From a virus: a stretch of 64,000 nt of DNA. The stretch is taken from the IMG/VR virus record IMGVR_UViG_3300025039_000014, positions 1-64,000 of that record; one strand, 5' to 3'. Shown here in pieces: positions 41,662-62,339 of this stretch (positions within the stretch are counted from its first letter, which is position 1; the number at the start of each line of letters is the position of its first letter). The translations under genes were made by a program, and so were the position numbers. Below the pieces are notes generated by a model that saw only the letters and a program-made list of their open reading frames with translations, did no database searches and had not been told where the DNA came from.

Positions 41662-41961
41662 ATGCAATACACGCTGACCTATCACTTCGTGGACAAGGAA
41701 GGCCGGGTCTATGACACCTGGTTCGAAAGCAGCACCCGGACACAGCCGTGGGAATGTATCGACCTCTCATGGCGTGGCGAGATACCCGTAGCCGGAGACG
41801 AAATTAGCTTCTGGAAACACAGCGGGGAACAACAGCGCCATCGCGTCACGGCGATCATTCAAGATCGTCAATTCTGCTACGGATACCAGGACACCGAGGA
41901 CGTCCAGCATGCATCCACCTGCGATGTGATGCTACGTGCGCGAGTGATCGACATCGACTAG
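41662..41961 (+). CDS. hypothetical protein
   Basis: AGGAG RBS. Confidence 0.65.
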   Translation: MQYTLTYHFVDKEGRVYDTWFESSTRTQPWECIDLSWRGEIPVAGDEISFWKHSGEQQRHRVTAIIQDRQFCYGYQDTEDVQHASTCDVMLRARVIDID

Positions 41962-42132
41962 CGTCGGGAAGCGCTCAATCTGCGCGTCTGAGAGCGTTAC
42001 CTGCTCGACAGTTATCTCGTTACACGTCAGAGACTCCCAGCGACTCCAGCGCGTCTCTGGAGCAATCCCAGTAATCGCAACACCCCTCCCAAAAAGACGT
42101 TGTCGACCCCGGAAGAAAATGCAACTATAAGC

Positions 42133-42153
42133 AGTAAGTCAATACTTACTTAC
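42133..42153. promoter_or_regulatory. GTAAG-palindrome operator copy
   Basis: AGTAAGTCAATACTTACTTAC after TATAAG. Confidence 0.8.
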
Positions 42154-42165
42154 GGCTAATAGAAA

Positions 42166-42552
42166 ATGTTCAACCTGGATCAGCTGTTCGTTCGCCGGCC
42201 ACGAGCCGTCCACATCGAACCCTTCACCGTAAACAAGGCCGACGAGGTCATTCGTGACAGCGCTGGCCACCCGATCATTTTCTACATCAAGACCCGCGAA
42301 GGTCGTCGGCTGATCAACCCCGGAATGATGATTGCGACCAAAACTGACGACTATCGCCATCCGATGGACGCCGACGTGTTCAATCGCGATTACGTCGCGC
42401 TGCTGGGCTACGAGAGCGCACTGGTCGAAGAGTTCAAGCGTCAGATCGCCGCTCAGCTCAGCACGGCTCTCGCTAGCGAGGCACCGATCGCAGCGATTAC
42501 CAACCTGGTGGCCATGATCGAGCCGCCGAAATCACTCGAAGTCACGGAGTAA
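42166..42552 (+). CDS. hypothetical phage protein
   Basis: IKTREG...PG...P..ADVF..DY. Confidence 0.7.
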   Translation: MFNLDQLFVRRPRAVHIEPFTVNKADEVIRDSAGHPIIFYIKTREGRRLINPGMMIATKTDDYRHPMDADVFNRDYVALLGYESALVEEFKRQIAAQLSTALASEAPIAAITNLVAMIEPPKSLEVTE

Positions 42553-49186: not shown

Positions 49187-49605
49187 TAGACCGTGGTGGA
49201 TAGCCGTGGTGCGGGGTGCTGCCAGCCGCGATTTTTGGCGGCGGCGACGTTGCCACGACGGGTTTTTGCCGCTGGTTACTTTGCCACCCAACGATTTTGT
49301 GGCTAACGACTTGGTGATGTTTTCGCCAGCCTGCTAATGATTAGCCACCCAATCGTTTCTTTGCTGGTCAATCCTCCGGTTCGTTCGCGTCATATCCATT
49401 AGCAGCATACGCGTTAATTCTAAGCGTGATTTGCTCGGGGAAATCAATCTTTTTTTGGTCAAATTCCCTCATAGCGGGAATTTATAGGGTGTTTACGCGT
49501 CATAGTTTTATTTGTGTTTACGCGTTAACAGTAAATCGATAATCTGGATACGTGCTCAAGACGAAGCACACAAAAAAAAGTCTCTCTCTCATTAAGGAAA
49601 TCATC

Positions 49606-50238
49606 ATGAAAATCACAGCTAACGATCGCACTATTGCTACTAACTCCAACGAAAAGAAAGTTTCGTTGTCTGAAAAATTCAATCTTGTCAAGACGCACGT
49701 TTCTTCTCTTGCTATCACGTCTAAGCAAACGAAGATTAAGGAGACGCAAAGCGCAATTATCGACGCATCCAAAAAGCGCGTCGAGAACTACGAAGCGAAA
49801 GCGCAGCGCAACGAAACAGACTATCGCGAATTAACAGTCGAAGTGACTCACGCAAAATATAACGCGTCGTTGCTCGACTTGGACGCAAAAGCGATGAAAT
49901 ACACTATCGACAAGAACATCAATCTCGCATCCGCTGTTAATGAGTCGCGCGAATATAAGAAACGTCTCAAGTCGTTTTTGGAAGCGTGCGCGAACAACGA
50001 CGCATCCAAACTCGACAAAGCGCTAGCGAAGCTACAAGCGCACATGAAAGCGTCCAGCGCATCCGCTATCACTGTCGCGCAAGTCGCGACAATCATGGAA
50101 CACAGCACGACGACGCAAGCGAGCTACTTTAAGAAATTCGCGACAATCCTCGGAGTTGTATCGTCCGAACGCTCTAATCAGTCTCCTATGACAATCAATA
50201 AAGAAAGCGATGTTTATAAAGACTTCGTTTCACTCTAA
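49606..50238 (+). CDS. hypothetical protein (possible C-terminal wHTH), in the GGB-free island
   Basis: TAAGGA RBS; 210 aa with only one Gly and one Pro. Confidence 0.8.
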   Translation: MKITANDRTIATNSNEKKVSLSEKFNLVKTHVSSLAITSKQTKIKETQSAIIDASKKRVENYEAKAQRNETDYRELTVEVTHAKYNASLLDLDAKAMKYTIDKNINLASAVNESREYKKRLKSFLEACANNDASKLDKALAKLQAHMKASSASAITVAQVATIMEHSTTTQASYFKKFATILGVVSSERSNQSPMTINKESDVYKDFVSL

Positions 50239-50251
50239 TTGATCGACACAT

Positions 50252-50277
50252 AAGCGCACTCCTTAGAGTGCGCTTTC
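50252..50277 (+). terminator. hairpin/terminator
   Basis: AAGCGCACTC-CTTA-GAGTGCGCTT-TC. Confidence 0.65.
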
Positions 50278-50303
50278 TCACTGGATTCCGAGGACAATTC
50301 GAC

Positions 50304-50609
50304 ATGATTAAATTCATTATCCGCAATAACACAAAGCGCTTTTACAATGCGCACGCTGTCGCGCAAGTCGACGCGCAGATGATAAACACTCGCATCGTCT
50401 ACTTCGTTCGCGCTGGATATATCATCGACACGAAAGCGCATCCATCATGCGCAGACTTTGAGCGTCAGCACGTCGCAACATATGCGACACGACAGGATGC
50501 GGAACACGCAGCGTATGACGCAATTGACGGAATCGCTAACGAAGTCGACTTCGACGTGATCGAAGCGTATTTTTATCGCTATCATGTCCAGCAATTCAAA
50601 GCAGCGTAG
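50304..50609 (+). CDS. hypothetical protein, in the GGB-free island
   Basis: GAGGA RBS; 101 aa. Confidence 0.7.
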   Translation: MIKFIIRNNTKRFYNAHAVAQVDAQMINTRIVYFVRAGYIIDTKAHPSCADFERQHVATYATRQDAEHAAYDAIDGIANEVDFDVIEAYFYRYHVQQFKAA

Positions 50610-51063
50610 CGCGTCCAGCAGCGCGCAGAGAGCGCGTTAACGTCAATCCGCTGTCATGATATGGATTCGATGTTAGCGCGTCTCTGAGGACGAAATAGAG
50701 CGATTGAGGATTAGCTAATGAAAGCGAGGACGATGGAGACATTAGGACGACATGAATTAGCAAAGTCTTAGAAATTCCCGACTTAGTGGCTGGGCATAGC
50801 CGCCTCAATTTCCCATTCCCGGCACTCCCCTTATACCACCAGGCCCCAGCCCCAGAGCCCCGCCCTTATACCACCGGCTACGAGTTCCCCGCGTCCCAAG
50901 CGTCCCCGCATCCCGAGTCCGACCGCCTGCCGTGAATCACCGAGCCCCATCGCCACCCCTGACCGACGTGAACCCGTGCCTTATACGACCGCGACCACCC
51001 GGCGTTGCCGGCAGTCTCAGCCCGCTCACAAGCCCTGGGCGTTGCCAGGGCTCCAAGTCGACC

Positions 51064-51610: not shown

Positions 51611-52933
<1,323 letters not shown>

Positions 52934-54077: not shown

Positions 54078-55676
54078 CTAGCCGGTTGTTATACCCATCG
54101 TCCCGAGATCGAAATCCCGAGGACCATAGACGATATTCTCGTTGAATCCCGGTGTGTTCTGGACGATCGCTAACCGCTCAAGCGAGTGTTGCCGCAAGTG
54201 GTTGTTCGACTGATCAATAAAGTCGATGATCAGCGCCACGTTGGCACCCTGCTTCTTCGCCCGCAGTCCGCGACCGATACGTTGTCTCAGTGCTACTTCT
54301 GCCTTCCCACCACCGGCCAGGATCACGCACCCTACCGCTGGCACGTCCACACCGACATCCATGATCGTCGAGCCAATCAGCACTTGGGTATTGCCGTCAC
54401 GGAGATCGTTGAGCGCATCTTGCCGAGTCTGCTTCGATGATTCGCCGAAGACGAAATTAACCCGAAGGCCGGCTTCGGACATACGTTTTTCGAGCAGTCG
54501 CCCGTGCGCCTTCTGGAGCACCAAGAGCATGACGGGTAAACCGAGCTCGGCAGCACGCAAAGCCTCCTTCACAATTAAGGCATTGCGCGTAGCGTTATAT
54601 ATGATGCCGAGCTTATACGCTCGCTGCCATCCGGTGCCATTCCCCAGCACCGTGCTTTTCACACCAGTCTCATTCATCTGTTTCAGGCCGAGCCTGTCGG
54701 GACTATAACCGACGGTGTGATATCGAAAATAGGGGCGCGCCAAAACACCGCGCTCGATGAGCTCTTTTTCGGTAACGCGAGCCATGACCGGACCCGTGCA
54801 AGCCAGCAGTCGCATGTTGGCTTCCTGGTCGTCCTTCATGAACGGTGTCGCTGTCAGCGCGAGTCTGAAATGCGCGTTGCGACAGGCATCCATGATGGCG
54901 TAATACGAGTTGCCCGAGACCTCGTGCGCTTCTTCCAAGATCACGAATTCGACCATCTCCAGATATTTGAGCGTTGCTGCTCTGACCTTCGCCTGGCGTT
55001 CCTGTTCCGCTTTCGGCTTCGAACGATCCGGCTCCTTGAGCCGCTGCACCAGCGTCTGAACCATTGCCACCGTGACGGCACGACGCGGCGCGAACTCGCC
55101 GTCTCCAATGACGCCGACCTGCTTGCCCTTGAAGAACGTATCGCCGTTGTCCAACTGGAACGTGAACGATTCTTCGAAGGCTCTCTGCATCTGATACATC
55201 AGCACAAATCGGGTGGTGATGAACAGCGTCGGCCGGCGAATCCTCGAGACCGCCATGTTGGCCACCCGACTCTTGCCGCCACCCGTCGCGATCTGCGCGA
55301 TCCCCGCCCCTTCCCGCACTAGCGTGCGCACGACCTTCGGCTGGTAGTCGTATTGAGCGGTGTAGCCGAAACCGTCGATTCGAGGCATGTCCGGGCCGAG
55401 TGCTTCCGGCAGAGGCTTCTGGATCACCTGGGGCACAAAACCGCGTTTCTTGAGCTCTGCGCACAGCGGCTTGGTGAATCCCGCCGGGAACGTCGCATTA
55501 CCCCATTCGAAAAACGTCGAGACGCCATCCCAGTCGTCGTTCCTGGCAGCGTATGAGTATTCCGATCCGGCTGACTTATACGAGGTCAAGGATTGGACAA
55601 TTTCTTTCACCTTGACGCTGTCGTCGACCAGCTTGGCGACCCTGGCATTACGGGCGATTCGAATGATCTGCCCCAT
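54078..55676 (-). CDS. superfamily 2 helicase
   Basis: ATGGGKS, LEEAH (DExH variant), LTATP, GVDVP, QRIGRGLR. Confidence 0.9.
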   Translation of the reverse strand: MGQIIRIARNARVAKLVDDSVKVKEIVQSLTSYKSAGSEYSYAARNDDWDGVSTFFEWGNATFPAGFTKPLCAELKKRGFVPQVIQKPLPEALGPDMPRIDGFGYTAQYDYQPKVVRTLVREGAGIAQIATGGGKSRVANMAVSRIRRPTLFITTRFVLMYQMQRAFEESFTFQLDNGDTFFKGKQVGVIGDGEFAPRRAVTVAMVQTLVQRLKEPDRSKPKAEQERQAKVRAATLKYLEMVEFVILEEAHEVSGNSYYAIMDACRNAHFRLALTATPFMKDDQEANMRLLACTGPVMARVTEKELIERGVLARPYFRYHTVGYSPDRLGLKQMNETGVKSTVLGNGTGWQRAYKLGIIYNATRNALIVKEALRAAELGLPVMLLVLQKAHGRLLEKRMSEAGLRVNFVFGESSKQTRQDALNDLRDGNTQVLIGSTIMDVGVDVPAVGCVILAGGGKAEVALRQRIGRGLRAKKQGANVALIIDFIDQSNNHLRQHSLERLAIVQNTPGFNENIVYGPRDFDLGTMGITTG

Positions 55677-55714: not shown

Positions 55715-55734
55715 GTAAGTAAGTGCTTACTTAC
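55715..55734. promoter_or_regulatory. perfect 9-2-9 operator palindrome
   Basis: GTAAGTAAG-TG-CTTACTTAC between the divergent helicase and ParB operon. Confidence 0.9.
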
Positions 55735-55786: not shown

Positions 55787-56452
55787 ATGAGCGAAATCCA
55801 GAAAGTAGACCCTCGGGAACTCCGCAAAAATTCTTGGAATACCAACAAGATGACGGCGGAAAACGAGGAAAAGCTGAGAACCAGCGTCCGGCGCAATGGC
55901 TTGCTCGGCGTGGTGCTGGTTCGAGAGCTGAAAGACGGCTCTATGGAGATCGTCGGCGGCGAACACCGCGTCGATATCGCTATCGAGGACGGTCAGTCAA
56001 CGGTCAACGTCCAAAACCTGGGCAAGATCAGCGATGCTCGCGCCAAGGAAATGATGCTGCTGGACAACGGCCGCTACGGACAGGATGACCCATTCGAACT
56101 GGCCGGCATTCTGGACGAGCTCGCCGCCGGCGGCGACGTGGATCTCTCCACCTTCATGCCCTTCGCCAGCGAGGACATGGACAAGCTGCTAAGCACCACC
56201 GACATCGACCTCGACAGTCTCGATTACCTCGACGAGCCGGACTACACCGGCGTCGAAGTCACCACCGAGAAGCGTGAGTCGAAAGTCCAGTCGCATCAGG
56301 TGCTGCGCTTCAAGGTCACGATGGACGACGCCGCGGCCGTGAAGCGCGTGATCGACAAGATCATGGAGTCACGGGGCTTCACCGAAGAGGACTCGCTGAC
56401 CAACGCCGGTGATGCCCTGGTCTACCTGGCGGGGGAATACGCCAATGAGTAA
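55787..56452 (+). CDS. ParB/Srx N-terminal domain protein 1
   Basis: NSWNTN, EIVGGEHR, DN. Confidence 0.85.
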   Translation: MSEIQKVDPRELRKNSWNTNKMTAENEEKLRTSVRRNGLLGVVLVRELKDGSMEIVGGEHRVDIAIEDGQSTVNVQNLGKISDARAKEMMLLDNGRYGQDDPFELAGILDELAAGGDVDLSTFMPFASEDMDKLLSTTDIDLDSLDYLDEPDYTGVEVTTEKRESKVQSHQVLRFKVTMDDAAAVKRVIDKIMESRGFTEEDSLTNAGDALVYLAGEYANE

Positions 56453-57119
56453 CGACCGCGGCGGCCAGGAGATCGTCTACCTCGATCCCAAGACCCTTAT
56501 TCCCTACGAGAACAACGTCAAGCGCCACCCGCGCAAGCACATCGAGGCGCTGAAAGCTCTGATGCTGCGTCACGGCTTCTCGAAGGGAAACCCCATCCAG
56601 GTCGACCGCAACATGGTCATCATCGCTGGACACGGCCGCACGGAAGCCGCGTGCGAGCTTGAGATGCCGGTGGTGCCGGTTGTCATCCGTTCGGACCTGT
56701 CCGACGACGAGGTGAAGCGCTGGCGTCTGGAAGAGAACAAGTCGGTCTCCAACGACTACGACGTGGTCGGCATGAAGGCCGAGATTGCCGATCTACTGGA
56801 TCTCGATGGGCCGTTGGTCGGCTTCGACGAGAAAGAGTGGGCGGTGCTGACCGAAGACCTCACGGCTGACTTCGATGCCGACTCGATGATCGCCGATCTC
56901 GAGGCCGAGATGGAATCCGCCGCGAAGCATCACGACGAGACCACCGAGAAGGCTCGCACCGAACAGGTGGCGATCACCGATCTTCTGGGATTCCGGCATG
57001 TGCCGGCGGCGCAGCAGCGCAAGATCGTCAAGTTCGTGGCGCGCCTCGAAGCTGAAACCGGCAAGACCGGCGCTGATGCCTTCCTGGCTCACATCGATCA
57101 GAGCGAGGGCGCGGCATGA
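56445..57119 (+). CDS. ParB/Srx N-terminal domain protein 2
   Basis: LIPYENN.K.H, IIAGHGR, RLEENK. Confidence 0.88.
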   Translation: MSNDRGGQEIVYLDPKTLIPYENNVKRHPRKHIEALKALMLRHGFSKGNPIQVDRNMVIIAGHGRTEAACELEMPVVPVVIRSDLSDDEVKRWRLEENKSVSNDYDVVGMKAEIADLLDLDGPLVGFDEKEWAVLTEDLTADFDADSMIADLEAEMESAAKHHDETTEKARTEQVAITDLLGFRHVPAAQQRKIVKFVARLEAETGKTGADAFLAHIDQSEGAA

Positions 57120-57754
57120 GCGACATCGTCATCGACAAGCGATTCAGCTCCCGCGTGACGCGCACCGATCGTGTGCTCGAAGTGGCCGAAGCCTTCGGGC
57201 TGGGCCTTGAGGATCGCGAGTTCGTGATCTACGACCAGCTGTCCGTCCAGGTCGAGCGTGGTGATGTCGTCTACATCAACGGGCAGTCCGGTTCCGGCAA
57301 GTCGTTGGCGCTGCGCGAGATCGCTCGCCAGTTGGCCGACCAGGGCATGCGCGTCGCCAACATCGACGAGATCGCCCTGGAAGACGTCCCGTTGATCGAT
57401 CAGATCGGCACCGACACCAACGACGCGGTTCGCCTGCTGTCGCTGGCTGGGCTCAACGATGCCTATCTGCTGGTGCGATCCCCTGCCGAGCTTTCCGATG
57501 GTCAGAAATATCGCTTCCGGCTGGCCAAGGTCATCGAGTCCGGCGCCGACGTGTGGGTCGCCGACGAGTTCTGCGCGGTCTTGGATCGCGAAACCGCAAA
57601 GGTCGTCTCGTTCAACGTCCAGCGCACGGCACGCAAGGCTGGCGCCACGGTGATCGTGGCCACCACCCATACCGACTTGGTAGAAGACCTCAAGCCAAGT
57701 CTGGTGATCGAGAAGTATTACAAGGCCAAAGTCAGCATGGAGAGACCCGCATGA
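57116..57754 (+). CDS. stand-alone ABC-type ATPase
   Basis: GQSGSGKS, LSDGQ, ADEF, ATTH; no permease gene nearby. Confidence 0.88.
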   Translation: MSDIVIDKRFSSRVTRTDRVLEVAEAFGLGLEDREFVIYDQLSVQVERGDVVYINGQSGSGKSLALREIARQLADQGMRVANIDEIALEDVPLIDQIGTDTNDAVRLLSLAGLNDAYLLVRSPAELSDGQKYRFRLAKVIESGADVWVADEFCAVLDRETAKVVSFNVQRTARKAGATVIVATTHTDLVEDLKPSLVIEKYYKAKVSMERPA

Positions 57755-58230
57755 GTGATGCTTCGACAACAGACGGACCCGCTACCGATACCTCTACGGT
57801 CGACCATGCGAAGACCATTCAGATCGTCGAGAAGCGCTGCAAGAAGCACGGTGTGGCGATCGTCACGATCCAGCCGTTCAGTGCGCGCCTGTTCGTGTTC
57901 AGAGGTCTCGATACCTACAGCGACAAGCTCAAGGCGATCTTCGGCGTCGAGACGCAGATGGGCTGCATCCTGCAAGACCTGAACGTCGGTGGTTTCTTCG
58001 GCTCCGAGTTGGACGTCAACGGCTGCCCGATTCTGGTGCTGGCGATCGATGGCACGACGAAATACCCGGAAGAAGCCATCTGGCACGAAGCGCTGCACGC
58101 GACCTTCGTCATCCTGGACCTCTACGGGGTCGAGTTCGACGTCGATAACCACGAAATCTACACCTACACCCAGGGCTACATCGTCAGTCAGATTCGCCAG
58201 CAACTCTACGGGCGAGAGTCGTTTCGATGA
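57751..58230 (+). CDS. HExxH zincin-like protein
   Basis: WHEALHA...NHE. Confidence 0.65.
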   Translation: MSDASTTDGPATDTSTVDHAKTIQIVEKRCKKHGVAIVTIQPFSARLFVFRGLDTYSDKLKAIFGVETQMGCILQDLNVGGFFGSELDVNGCPILVLAIDGTTKYPEEAIWHEALHATFVILDLYGVEFDVDNHEIYTYTQGYIVSQIRQQLYGRESFR

Positions 58231-59132
58231 TCCCGAATGACGTCGCGATCCGCCGGCCGGCCGCCTCTGAGTGGTCGGAGGGCTTCTCGTTGCTGTCGCG
58301 AATGGTCCTCGAGCGCGGCACCCGCGAAGACTGGCTGGCGCTGCACGATCTTCACTACAAGACCGAGACTGACTCCTTCGGCCAGACCTACTACCGCTGC
58401 ACGCTCGACGGCACGCTGATCGGCGTGGTCGTCACGGCCTACCCGAAGCTGTTGCTGGAACCGCGTCATCGCATGTTCCCGAAGATCAAGCCGACCGGCG
58501 GCTCCAAGCTCACCAATACGGCGCGGGCGAAGTTCGTGAATGACCTGTTCGCGATCGTCAACCGCTCGGTCGTTGACACGCTCTACCGCGGTGTCGGCGT
58601 CTCCTATCGGATGCTCAACCTGGCCGCCCGGATGCATCCACGCCAGGTGGTGGAGATCCAATCGGCCATGTCGAAATTCTCGCCCTTCGCCATGAAGGCA
58701 GGGTTCCTCTTCGCCAAGCCGATCCCGAACAAGAACTACGCCAAAGGCGTAGCGATGGTCACTCGTTTCTTCGATAGCCATCCGATGGACACCGTCGGCC
58801 TGCTCGAAGAGATCGACGCCATGCCGGACTCGCTCAAGCTCAAGACCCTGCGTGAGCTCACGGCGTTCTATTACAAGTGCTCGGCGCTTGAGAAGACCGG
58901 TCGCAACCTGGGTCGCGGCCTGGCTGACCTGGATTACGAGCCTGCCGAGCTGATCGCCAAGATTCAGGGACTGATCTTCGCCTCCCCGCTCTATGGCGCC
59001 TATCGCAATCCTGACTTTGGCCGTGCGCTGCCCGACCGGCTACCGCTGGCCGCGTTCGATCTCCAAAGTCCCAACGAACCGCTGAACCTCGCTGCCCTGG
59101 AAACCCTGATTGGAAGCGTCCCCGATGAGTGA
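58227..59132 (+). CDS. GNAT-fold transferase, candidate DNA base-modifying enzyme
   Basis: L..LHY, R.VVDTLYRGVG (acyl-CoA motif A), AMSKFSPF..KAG. Confidence 0.75.
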   Translation: MIPNDVAIRRPAASEWSEGFSLLSRMVLERGTREDWLALHDLHYKTETDSFGQTYYRCTLDGTLIGVVVTAYPKLLLEPRHRMFPKIKPTGGSKLTNTARAKFVNDLFAIVNRSVVDTLYRGVGVSYRMLNLAARMHPRQVVEIQSAMSKFSPFAMKAGFLFAKPIPNKNYAKGVAMVTRFFDSHPMDTVGLLEEIDAMPDSLKLKTLRELTAFYYKCSALEKTGRNLGRGLADLDYEPAELIAKIQGLIFASPLYGAYRNPDFGRALPDRLPLAAFDLQSPNEPLNLAALETLIGSVPDE

Positions 59133-59418
59133 ATACCGCATGACCCAGAAGCAGCTCCAGATCATCACCGCGATCCACGAGCACCAGAAGAACCACAAGC
59201 AGGACATCGACCTGGATCAGCTGCTGGGCTCTCTGCCCTACGAGACGACCAAGGAATCGATGCAGTTCAGCCTGCGAGCCCTGATCAAGAAGGGTCTGCT
59301 GGCGAAGGTAGGCGACGCCGTGATTCGTCGTGGACGGGCTCGTCGGACCTATCGGCTGACGCTGATGGCCAAGGAAATGTTCCGGCTGGGGTCAGAAAAA
59401 TCACACACACCAGCTTAA
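59125..59418 (+). CDS. winged-helix DNA-binding protein
   Basis: MTQKQLQII...SLRALIKKGLL...RGRARRTYRLT. Confidence 0.75.
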   Translation: MSEYRMTQKQLQIITAIHEHQKNHKQDIDLDQLLGSLPYETTKESMQFSLRALIKKGLLAKVGDAVIRRGRARRTYRLTLMAKEMFRLGSEKSHTPA

Positions 59419-60459
59419 AGTATTGATACAATCGGCAGAAGCTGTGCCAAGCAAATATCACTGATACCACCGATAAAACTCATACCACCGAACGCCCACT
59501 CGACACCGATATCACCGACTCCCCGCGACTCACACCTGCCGACATGACCGCTATCACCTGGCTTCACCTCCGCTAAGACCGACTGCACGCGATACCCAGG
59601 TTCAAGACCGAGACCACCGAGACAACCGATCGCTGACAGACCGCGCTGAAAGCGCAACGACGACGCACTGAACGAACCGACAGTCACCCGGCGCCACGAT
59701 CACCGATATCACCGCCCTATTCCGACGGCCAAGAGATCCGACCATCCCCAGAATGGTCCCAGGTGGGAAGCGAGTCCGGTATGTGTCCGCATCATGTTCT
59801 GGAAATTCAGGTCGGTCCCGTCCGACAAGGTCAATATCTATCGGCCTCATTGGCACAAACTCTCCAGACATAGAGCGCAGTTGGCGCGAAAAATCGTCGT
59901 CTGGGAGACGGGGAAGTTGCGCCTTCTCCCTTTGTGCGTTTCTGGCGAAAAATTCTGAGAGCACAGGATAACGCGAAATAATGCTTTCTAATCAATGCTT
60001 TACAGAGAAAACGCAACCCCGCTCATCCGAGGATATTGGGATCAAAAACACCCCTTCATCCGAGGCATCCAAATTCTCTCTAAAGTATTGTTTTGAAACG
60101 AGAAAAGAGTTTTTAGCTCCGATGCCTCAGTCCCTCTATAAATACACTCTCAAAACAAGAACCCCTAAAAACAGAATATTCAGTTTACGCAAAGTTAACG
60201 CGTAAACGTAAACGAAAAACCATCTGATATACGCGTAAAAATTCGGCCAGCGCGGGCCGCCGACCCTGACGACGGGAAACCTCGGAACGGATCGGAACCT
60301 GGCGGCGACCACCCGCCCAATGACTCTCTGAAAATCTGATCTTCGTGCCCCTGCTCAAATTTGCGTTCTAAGCGACGATATCGCTCCGATCCACCCCGAC
60401 ATACAGGGTAGCTTCGGAAAATCGCTGAGAACGCATCCCTGATCGATTGGGAGCGATTT
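59419..60459. other. non-coding region upstream of terS, candidate pac/late-control region
   Basis: ACCG-rich tract, A-tract-rich block, ACGCGT motifs. Confidence 0.5.
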
Positions 60460-61104
60460 ATGAGCGACACGAAGACTGCACGAAAGCGAATGTCTCCGAG
60501 CCAGTGGGCAGAAGCGCGTGCGATGTGGGCGTCGGGCGAGTTCACGCTGGAACAGATCGCCGAGAAATACGGCGTCGCCCGCGAAACCCTGTCGCGCCGG
60601 TTCGCCAAGGACGGGGTCAAGAAGGGTCAGAGCCAGATCGATCGCAAGGTCGAGCAGGAGCTGATCGAGAAAGCCGTCCAGGCTGCCGACAAGTGGGCGG
60701 AGCGCGGCGAACAAGCCCGCGAATCGTTCTTCAAGATGAACAAGATGGTCGTCGCGCTGACCGGCAAGGTCTTGCAAGACGCGATCGCCGGGGGCAAGGG
60801 GCTCTACACCGCCCAGGCCGACCTCAAGGCACTCCAGATGACATCGATCATTCTGGAGAAGACTCGGGCGAATCAGTGGGCCGTCGTGGGTCTCGACAAG
60901 GAAACCGACAACGACGACGAAATCCCCCAGCTGCTGGTGCGCACGCTGACCCCGGATCAGGTCGTCGAACTCCAGCGCATGCAGCATCAGGTAACGCCGG
61001 AAGACGAGATCGAGGTCGGCGACGCCGAACCCTACCTCGAAGACATCGATGTTCTCGATGACGAAGACGACGATGCGGTTATCGTCGAAGAGGCCGACGA
61101 CTAA
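60460..61104 (+). CDS. terS: terminase small subunit
   Basis: N-terminal HTH (TLEQIAEKYGVARETLSRR); TAATG-coupled to terL. Confidence 0.8.
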   Translation: MSDTKTARKRMSPSQWAEARAMWASGEFTLEQIAEKYGVARETLSRRFAKDGVKKGQSQIDRKVEQELIEKAVQAADKWAERGEQARESFFKMNKMVVALTGKVLQDAIAGGKGLYTAQADLKALQMTSIILEKTRANQWAVVGLDKETDNDDEIPQLLVRTLTPDQVVELQRMQHQVTPEDEIEVGDAEPYLEDIDVLDDEDDDAVIVEEADD

Positions 61105-62339
61105 TGGCCGCCGTCATCGATCTCAGCCTTCACGACAAGCAGATGGAAGTCTTCTCCGACCCGGCGCGATTCAAGGTCGTCGTGGCCGGCCGGCGCTGGG
61201 GCAAGTCTCGTCTGTCGCTGACCTCGATGCTGCGCGCCGCCCGGATGCCCCGCTCTCGGGTCTGGTATATCGCGCCGACCTTCCGCATGGCCAAGCAGAT
61301 CATGTGGGACGAGCTGCTGGAGATGATCCCCAAGCAGTGGGTCAGGAAGACCAACCACTCGACCCTTACGGTGGTGCTCAAGAACAAGACCGAAATCTCG
61401 CTCAAGGGTGCCGACCGCCCCGATACCCTGCGCGGTGTCGCGCTGAACTACGTGGTCCTCGACGAATTTCAGGACATGAAGGCCGACGTCTGGGTCAAGG
61501 TGCTTCGCCCGACGCTGTCGTCAACCGGCGGACACGCACTGATCATCGGCACCCCGAAGGCGTTCAACTACCTCTACGAGCTGTGGAAGCTCGGTCAGGA
61601 TGGCCGCTCGAAGCAGTGGAAGTCCTGGCAGTTCGAAACCGCCTCATCGCCCTTCATCCCGGCATCCGAAATCGAAGCAGCCCGCGAGGACATGGACCCC
61701 AAGTCGTTCGCACAGGAATACCTGGCGAGCTTCGCCACCATGTCGGGCCGAGTCTACTACCCGTTCGATCGCATGGAGCATGTCGGCACCTATGCGTTCA
61801 ACCCCGCCCTGCCGATCTGGGTGGGCCAGGATTTCAACATCGACCCGATGTCCTCGGTGGTCATGCAGCCGCAGAGCAACGGCGATATCTGGATCGTCGA
61901 CGAGATGATTTTGCCATCCTCGAATACGGCCGAAGTGTGTGACGAGCTGGAGCGCAAGTTCTGGCGCTGGCAGTCCAATTTGACGGTTTACCCCGATCCA
62001 GCCGGAGGCCAGCGCCAACACGCCCGCGGCGAAACCGATATGGACATCTTTCGGGAACGCGGCTTCAAGCGGCTCAAATACAAGCGCCGGCACCCGGCGA
62101 TCGCCGACCGCGTCAACGCGGTCAACTCGATGCTGATGAGTGCATCCGGCCAGGTTCGCCTGCGCGTGGACGCGAGCTGCCGTCAAACGATCTCGGCCTT
62201 CGAACAGACGCTTTACAAGCCAGGCAGTCGGGACATCGACAAGGCCGCCGGTGTGGAGCACCCGGCCGATGCGCTGGGCTACTGCATCGACCTCGAACGT
62301 CCGGTGCGGAAATTCAAGCCGATGGGCGCTTCTTTCTGA
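61104..62339 (+). CDS. terL: terminase large subunit
   Basis: AGRRWGKS, VVLDE, IGTP, GQDFN, H..DA..Y. Confidence 0.93.
   Translation: MAAVIDLSLHDKQMEVFSDPARFKVVVAGRRWGKSRLSLTSMLRAARMPRSRVWYIAPTFRMAKQIMWDELLEMIPKQWVRKTNHSTLTVVLKNKTEISLKGADRPDTLRGVALNYVVLDEFQDMKADVWVKVLRPTLSSTGGHALIIGTPKAFNYLYELWKLGQDGRSKQWKSWQFETASSPFIPASEIEAAREDMDPKSFAQEYLASFATMSGRVYYPFDRMEHVGTYAFNPALPIWVGQDFNIDPMSSVVMQPQSNGDIWIVDEMILPSSNTAEVCDELERKFWRWQSNLTVYPDPAGGQRQHARGETDMDIFRERGFKRLKYKRRHPAIADRVNAVNSMLMSASGQVRLRVDASCRQTISAFEQTLYKPGSRDIDKAAGVEHPADALGYCIDLERPVRKFKPMGASF

Follow-up and report, generated by a model that had tools for sequence, protein, structure and literature searches.

The operon at positions 55787-59418 of IMG/VR virus record IMGVR_UViG_3300025039_000014 comprises six genes, which encode two ParB-like proteins (ParB1 and ParB2), an ABC-type ATPase, an HExxH protein, a GNAT-fold acyltransferase and a small putative DNA-binding protein. 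The DNA analyzed here (the window) is the first 64 kb of this 104,759-bp phage contig (57.9% GC; genome G000). By its gene content and sequence relationships, the cluster is an ordinary member, with separate genes, of a virus module in which ParB-like proteins, an ABC ATPase and a GNAT are encoded beside the terminase, and this module belongs to the core gene set of a whole phage family. The leading reading of its function, to which we assign a probability of roughly 40%, is DNA acylation guided by the ParB-fold proteins. A first-pass annotation of the window had gone further and proposed that the target of such a modification is the trinucleotide GGB/VCC, revealed by an island some 5 kb upstream from which this word is missing. 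The island is real, but the operon is not supported as its cause.

Conservation of the module

The six open reading frames (ORFs) overlap successively by 4 or 8 nt and are translationally coupled throughout, as the first-pass annotation had it. Relatives are encoded in 411 IMG/VR stretches, and the locus counts given below come from 80 of them. The genes of the operon are the following.

55787..56452, + strand: ParB1 (Pfam ParB_N, 2.3e-7; phrog_723, 1.8e-53); 77/80 loci
56445..57119, + strand: ParB2 (phrog_930, 2.1e-56; phrog_498, 3e-27); 79/80 loci
57116..57754, + strand: soluble ABC-type nucleotide-binding domain (Pfam ABC_tran, 3.7e-11); 80/80 loci, 56-82% identity
57751..58230, + strand: accessory HExxH protein of 159 aa with an invariant WHEALH and a downstream Glu; 18/80 loci
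58227..59132, + strand: predicted GNAT-fold acyltransferase of 301 aa (AF2 model, acyl-CoA loop); 80/80 loci
59125..59418, + strand: small putative winged-helix DNA-binding protein of 97 aa (phrog_900, 8.7e-21); 79/80 loci

The gene order ParB1, ParB2, ABC, GNAT and small helix-turn-helix (HTH) protein is kept in 77-80 of the 80 loci. Homologs of the GNAT with 42-52% identity were found in the SSU5-like phage-plasmids of Salmonella, Klebsiella and Escherichia and in phages of Pseudomonas, Stenotrophomonas, Xanthomonas and Rhizobium. The phages Cyrano, nickie, RHEph10 and BUCTxx99 share one arrangement, which runs from a helicase gene on the opposite strand through two ParB genes, ABC, optional small ORFs, GNAT and a small protein to a terS-like gene, terL and the portal gene. 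Across five genomes from different hosts, the ABC ATPase is 54-82% identical, the GNAT 43-79% and the large terminase TerL 57-78%, so that the two module proteins are conserved at the level of TerL and of the capsid protein. In a large family of phages and phage-plasmids of 100-120 kb, to which the SSU5-like plasmids from Salmonella, Klebsiella and E. coli belong, few gene sets are as conserved as this module, whose genes are routinely mislabelled as 'ABC transporter' or 'partition protein'. Viruses of archaea and planctomycetes have it next to the terminase as well: in contigs assigned to Planctomycetota, Bathyarchaeia and Nitrososphaeria, a fused or adjacent ABC-GNAT adjoins ParB-like genes and/or terL, with a gene order that differs from that of the phage and with ParB sometimes missing.

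Pairing of the ABC ATPase with the GNAT

The ABC protein (212 aa) carries a Walker A motif (GQSGSGKS), a Q-loop, an LSDGQ signature, the DE of Walker B and an H-loop, all of them invariant among 13 sequences. Its annotation as an ABC transporter was rejected, since no permease is encoded in the operon or its neighbors and the partner of the ABC protein is the GNAT. The GNAT itself has no match in Pfam (E≤0.01), NCBIfam or the sequences of the PDB. Its AF2 model, built with 37 homologs (pLDDT 84), shows a GNAT fold with a helical insertion; it gave 60 Foldseek matches at E≤1e-3, all GNATs among the matches listed, which include Naa60, TmcA, NAT10 and Mom, and VIA Z scores of about 12 against many GNATs. 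The segment VVDTLYRGVG, in which an acyl-CoA motif had been recognized beforehand, corresponds to the β4-α3 acyl-CoA loop (R-x-x-G), and its residues V115, D117, R121 and G124 are invariant, which together with the fold model confirms that assignment.

Distant relatives were sought by a profile search with the GNAT over 1.84 billion representatives, which yielded 932 matches. All nine long relatives that were checked carry an N-terminal ABC_tran domain, and many more of the relatives listed, about 450-500 aa long, match the GNAT profile from about residue 200 on (to about 350-480). A word-based search for ABC-GNAT fusions returned only one doubtful long protein. The database labels on the SSU5-like homologs read COG2401 or 'MK0520, ABC-type ATPase fused to a predicted acetyltransferase domain'. 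By these sequence relationships, the GNAT is the split-off C-terminal half of ABC-GNAT fusion proteins of the COG2401 type. Three of the distant relatives (P0201, P0163 and P0194) carry extra parts; among such additions are an N-terminal fusion to a family-B DNA polymerase, a C-terminal TFIIB repeat of archaeal flavor and an intein with a LAGLIDADG domain, each in one ABC-GNAT relative.

In the phage operon, the ABC and GNAT genes are coupled by 4-nt overlaps via the HExxH gene, and they are directly adjacent in 20 of the 80 loci. Modeling of the ABC-GNAT complex, a check that the first-pass annotation had suggested, gave an ipSAE of 0.69 against 0.02 for the best control, with at least 86% contact agreement between runs and partner pLDDT values of at least 78, a mark that 58 of 80 solved complexes attained, as did 2 of 110 mismatched pairs. 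In the predicted interface, the C-terminal strand of the ABC protein pairs with the N-terminus of the GNAT, as expected of a split fusion. The complex model hence supports binding between the two proteins.

ParB-like, HTH and HExxH proteins

In ParB1, a ParB/Srx N-terminal domain bearing a conserved GGEHR box is followed by an acidic linker and then by a small C-terminal domain that is conserved as well, and ParB2 is a second protein with a ParB/Srx N-terminal domain, with a GHGR box. These nucleotide-pocket boxes are conserved across 39-48 homologs. In both proteins the Pfam and PHROG scans detected only the N-terminal ParB/Srx domain, in agreement with what had been noticed at first reading. 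ParB2 also matches the ParB part of ParB-methyltransferase fusions (phrog_498), the type that is fused to phage DNA methyltransferases. A ParABS partition system was considered and rejected, given that the cluster contains no ParA gene and that ParB_N is the only domain detected in ParB1 and ParB2. Some phages with the module have, moreover, been deposited as complete linear genomes, and the annotation of the stretches examined lists no plasmid functions. The absence of an adjacent parA and of a permease, both remarked on earlier, is borne out in the cluster.

The small protein encoded last in the operon is a putative DNA-binding protein, whose earlier description as a winged-helix protein is backed only by Pfam and NCBIfam matches of that type that stay below threshold. 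In the HExxH protein, the WHEALH motif (112-116) and E135 are invariant among ten homologs, so that the motif reported in the first-pass annotation stands and resembles that of gluzincins (HExxH plus a downstream Glu). Its AF2 model (pLDDT 82) has no convincing match in the PDB, with a best Foldseek E of 0.17 and a best VIA-wide Z of 4.6, and an Atlas lead to Peptidase_M78 reaches a score of just 0.85. The slot between ABC and GNAT is taken by a homolog of this protein in 18 of the 80 loci, is empty in 20 and in many others contains an 84-aa ORF unrelated to it, which makes the HExxH protein an optional add-on to the module. That 84-aa ORF (L005:9735-9989) is itself conserved, and in about 40 SSU5-like loci it sits in the gap instead of the HExxH gene.

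Candidate function

It seems reasonable to postulate that the ABC domain and the GNAT would work as a single ATP-driven, acyl-CoA-dependent transferase, that the two ParB/Srx-fold proteins and the small HTH protein would load or activate it on double-stranded phage DNA, and that the transferase would then acylate a nucleobase of the replicated phage DNA, before or during packaging. We infer here DNA as the substrate, the timing of the reaction and the role of the ParB proteins; the coupling to packaging put forward in the first-pass annotation has gene position as its only basis. If DNA acylation is indeed the function, the module would add to the known natural DNA modifications and extend the tasks of ParB-fold proteins by a new one.

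Several known systems bear on this reading. The first-pass annotation knew of no described chemistry for the arrangement, yet section 3.4.7 of PMC7824862 already reports, with credit to Iyer et al. (NAR 2013), the prediction that a GNAT coupled to an ABC ATPase adds an uncharacterized acyl modification to a base in DNA. The present analysis documents the structure of the genes, the folds and the conservation of the catalytic motifs, together with fusions of ABC to GNAT in relatives, an interface predicted between the two proteins and the linkage of the pair to ParB and terL across distant viruses. The COG2401/MK0520 system has the same two catalytic domains, homologous by profile search and Pfam, and the same phage context, but in the present cluster these domains are encoded by separate coupled genes, accompanied by two ParB genes, a small HTH gene and an extra HExxH gene. 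A precedent for the ParB partners is experimental: a ParB-like protein activates a phage thymine dioxygenase on double-stranded DNA (5mYOX176/ParB176, PMC13229309), and thymine dioxygenase pathways often share contigs with ParB and terminase genes (terminases, 19%; PMC13229309). As here, a ParB-fold protein with no evident DNA-binding domain is encoded beside a post-replicative phage DNA modifier and is needed on double-stranded DNA, but the enzyme is an Fe/2-oxoglutarate dioxygenase instead of a GNAT, without an ABC ATPase and with one ParB instead of two. Similarly, the ParB-like ATPase DpdB supports the insertion of a modified base by its partner enzyme DpdA (reviewed in PMC12839542), a system that differs in its transglycosylase chemistry and in serving host defense; PHROG scans of 48 ORFs of the window (38 larger ORFs plus ten in or around the cluster) detected neither TGT nor preQ0 genes. 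Mom of phage Mu, finally, is a GNAT-fold modifier of DNA bases that matches the GNAT model (8bv8) with a Z of 11.3 and a root-mean-square deviation (rmsd) of 3.2 Å over 140 residues. This Z falls inside the generic GNAT range of 10.9-12.2, no match to the Mom sequence family was found with Pfam, and Mom acts without ABC ATPase or ParB partners. A paper on nick motifs (PMC11780129) was set aside as a parallel, for it concerns unrelated phages.

Four points weigh against DNA acylation. The structural neighbors of the GNAT are generic, and protein N-acetyltransferases score as well as Mom. The conservation of ABC and GNAT, equal to that of TerL and capsid protein, fits an essential role in assembly or packaging at least as well as a DNA mark shaped by an arms race. 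Restriction palindromes, those with GG or CC among them, are still purged and G000 lacks GTAC (see below), so that the phage DNA does not look broadly protected. Lastly, we know of no experiment on any member of the module. The papers on nickie and RHEph10 report no data on DNA modification or termini.

Two other roles are live rivals. The more serious, which we consider unlikely, is that the ABC-GNAT pair acylates a protein (terminase, portal, capsid or host protein) and that the ParB and HTH proteins merely localize it at the packaging site. The best structural neighbors include the N-terminal and protein acetyltransferases Naa60, RimI, Ard1 and HP0935, the module has a deep linkage to terL and is conserved to the degree of structural genes, and there are phage GNATs known to acetylate the RNA polymerase of the host (Rac, as cited in a passage of PMC7824862). 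Protein GNATs, however, normally need neither an ATPase nor ParB-fold partners, one relative of the pair is fused to a DNA polymerase, and documented ParB-fold helpers serve DNA base modifiers (PMC13229309). The second rival is an accessory machine for packaging or genome ends, in which the ParB-fold proteins would be nickases or clamps in the repeat region at 59.4-60.5 kb and the ABC-GNAT pair would be regulatory and no writer of DNA. It is congruent with the invariant position of the module just before the repeat-rich gap and terS/terL, with the conservation of the module as a core gene set and with the ability of ParB/Srx proteins to nick DNA (cited in a passage of PMC12839542). Nevertheless, the invariance of the acyl-CoA loop and of the ATPase motifs argues for real catalysis, the gene order around terL varies in distant viruses and ParB is sometimes missing there, and we regard this role as improbable.

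The GGB/VCC-free island and remaining alternatives

The island that the first-pass annotation linked to the operon is the following feature.

49488..50777, no strand: GGB/VCC-free island with two small genes inside (gap scan of the word)

Over its 1289 bp it contains no GGC, GGG, GGT, GCC, CCC or ACC, and all of its 35 CC/GG steps are TCC/GGA. The next longest GGB/VCC gap in the window measures 72 bp; gaps of the island's kind have an expected number with a log10 of -56, and the genome contains no second island. Just downstream of it, a 427-aa protein (51650-52933) matches phrog_16140 at 1e-196; this protein is absent from G001, nickie, RHEph10 and BUCTxx99.

To follow the island beyond the window, 14 whole genomes were compared: G000, its nearest relative G001 (IMGVR_UViG_2711768162_000009), nickie, RHEph10, BUCTxx99, two further genomes (G005 and G006) and seven SSU5-like genomes. 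Three of them carry an island of the same kind, located 5-11 kb upstream of the ParB-ABC-GNAT operon. In nickie (NC_042091; 103798-105074) the GGB/VCC rule is the same, with TCC/GGA alone tolerated and only three CC/GG steps; in G005 (IMG/VR, contig of L071; 19636-20555) TCC/GGA alone is again tolerated; and in RHEph10 (NC_034248; 98996-99982) nearly all CC/GG is banned, with a handful left.

These data allow an evaluation of the proposal that the operon places an acyl mark at GGB/VCC (CC/GG) steps and that the island stays free of the word so that early genes remain unmarked. In its favor are the existence of the island 5 kb upstream of the operon, the CC/GG-poor islands similarly placed in the other three genomes, the failure of the PHROG scans of the 48 window ORFs to detect any other DNA-modification gene and the avoidance of the word on both strands, which points to a reader of double-stranded DNA. 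The distribution of the two elements, however, tells against it. The operon is present in 14/14 genomes and the island in 4/14; islands are absent from the operon-bearing G001, BUCTxx99, G006 and the seven SSU5-like genomes, and none was found within 10 kb in any of the 80 loci. That operon and islands occur together is therefore due solely to the presence of the operon throughout the family. A lack of correlation between the two across genomes was among the outcomes that the first-pass annotation itself had named as refuting. No G000 gene common to the island-bearers alone was found by tblastn.

In G001, ABC and GNAT are, respectively, 82% and 79% identical to those of G000, and the region 41733-42365 (L003/L083) encodes a homolog of the first ORF of the island (53% identity) with only 2 Gly, 4 Pro and no Trp among 211 residues. 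The DNA of this homolog nonetheless contains 32 GGB/VCC, mostly at synonymous GCC and ACC codons. Its composition makes it look like a relaxed relic of a decayed island, in which the protein is still poor in Gly, Pro and Trp but the constraint on the DNA has been lost while ABC and GNAT were kept. The earlier expectation that the depleted motif would change with the GNAT clade also failed. In the TerL and ABC+GNAT trees, the four island-bearers form separate deep branches and are not sisters, and the banned word is essentially the same in all of them, so that it does not track the clade of the GNAT.

Restriction-site avoidance provides a further argument. Many 6-bp palindromes are purged genome-wide in G000, and those that contain GG/CC are avoided as strongly as others (observed/expected: CCCGGG 0/19, AGGCCT 2/15, GGATCC 0/19), a pattern at odds with a general protective mark on such words. 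GTAC is absent from G000 (0 against about 180 expected), G001 and RHEph10, and depleted in G005. The loss of GTAC and of the palindromes is a classic case of restriction-site avoidance.

On this evidence, a GGB/VCC-writing operon is hardly more than a marginal candidate, and the pairing of a 'writer operon' with a 'motif-free island' fails the cross-genome comparison, so that the island needs an explanation of its own. A modified version, in which ParB-ABC-GNAT would write an undescribed acyl mark on CC/GG steps, the island would be a first-expressed cassette kept unmarked and the lineages without islands would have changed their start-up strategy, is a long shot. Fainter still is the prospect of an ATP-dependent RNA (tRNA or rRNA) cytidine acetyltransferase of the TmcA/NAT10 kind with an ABC domain replacing the helicase-type ATPase: both enzymes are among the Foldseek matches (E of about 1.6e-4 to 4e-4) and likewise couple an ATPase to a GNAT acting on nucleic acid, and nickie has tRNA genes adjoining the cluster, but no tRNA genes were found in the window, the long TmcA/NAT10 alignments (>300 columns) have an rmsd of 13-16 Å, there is no sequence-family match, the helicase-like ATPase of these RNA-modifying enzymes is fused whereas the ABC-type ATPase here is encoded by a separate gene, and the linkage to ParB and terminase has no rationale for an RNA substrate.

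Genome setting, operator and repeats

According to the PHROG scans, the window belongs to a large siphovirus-type genome encoding a Pol III alpha-like polymerase, SbcCD, a UvsX-like recombinase, ribonucleotide reductase, thymidylate synthase and DHFR, with a terS-like gene, terL and the portal gene at 60.5-63.9 kb. No close DNA relatives of the window were found in the phage collection. The features that flank the operon are listed below.

54078..55676, - strand: superfamily 2 (SF2) helicase (ResIII/DEAD, UvsW-like), a conserved neighbor of the module in 76/80 related loci
55715..55734, no strand: perfect 20-bp palindrome, putative operator, in the divergent promoter gap between helicase and ParB1
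59419..60459, no strand: non-coding gap before terS, with direct repeats of the GATAYCACCG type and, on the - strand, two TTTACGCGT boxes
60460-61104, + strand: terS-like HTH protein (PHROG/Pfam matches phrog_867, Terminase_6N/6C and phrog_2, listed jointly with terL)
61104-62339, + strand: large terminase, terL (same joint PHROG/Pfam matches)

The helicase gene, which occupies the same position in Cyrano, nickie, RHEph10 and BUCTxx99, is divergent from the operon across an intergenic gap of 110 bp. The perfect operator under which the first-pass annotation placed the operon does lie in this gap: the sequence GTAAGTAAGTGCTTACTTAC is a perfect palindrome with the arms GTAAGTAAG-TG-CTTACTTAC. 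Matches to GTAAGT-N8-ACTTAC number 24 in the window against 0.46 expected, and such sites front replication, nucleotide-metabolism and portal genes, with which the operon accordingly shares a regulatory element. The palindrome before ParB1 is one of about 19 operator-like sites genome-wide, which lie at gene boundaries (window 505-62371), none of them within the island.

At its other end, the operon was described beforehand as directly upstream of terS/terL. It does precede both genes, but with a non-coding, repeat-rich gap of 1.04 kb in between, which may be a packaging or regulatory region. The GATAYCACCG-type direct repeats occupy 59455-59714, after the small HTH gene and before terS, and may mark a packaging or protein-loading site. 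The 9-mer TTTACGCGT has four copies in the window against 0.16 expected. One pair lies at the left edge of the island (49492-49525, + strand) and an inverted pair in the gap before terS (60198-60239, - strand), within a shared GTTTACGCGTTAAC box, and the two pairs bracket 10.7 kb that hold the island, the helicase gene and the operon.

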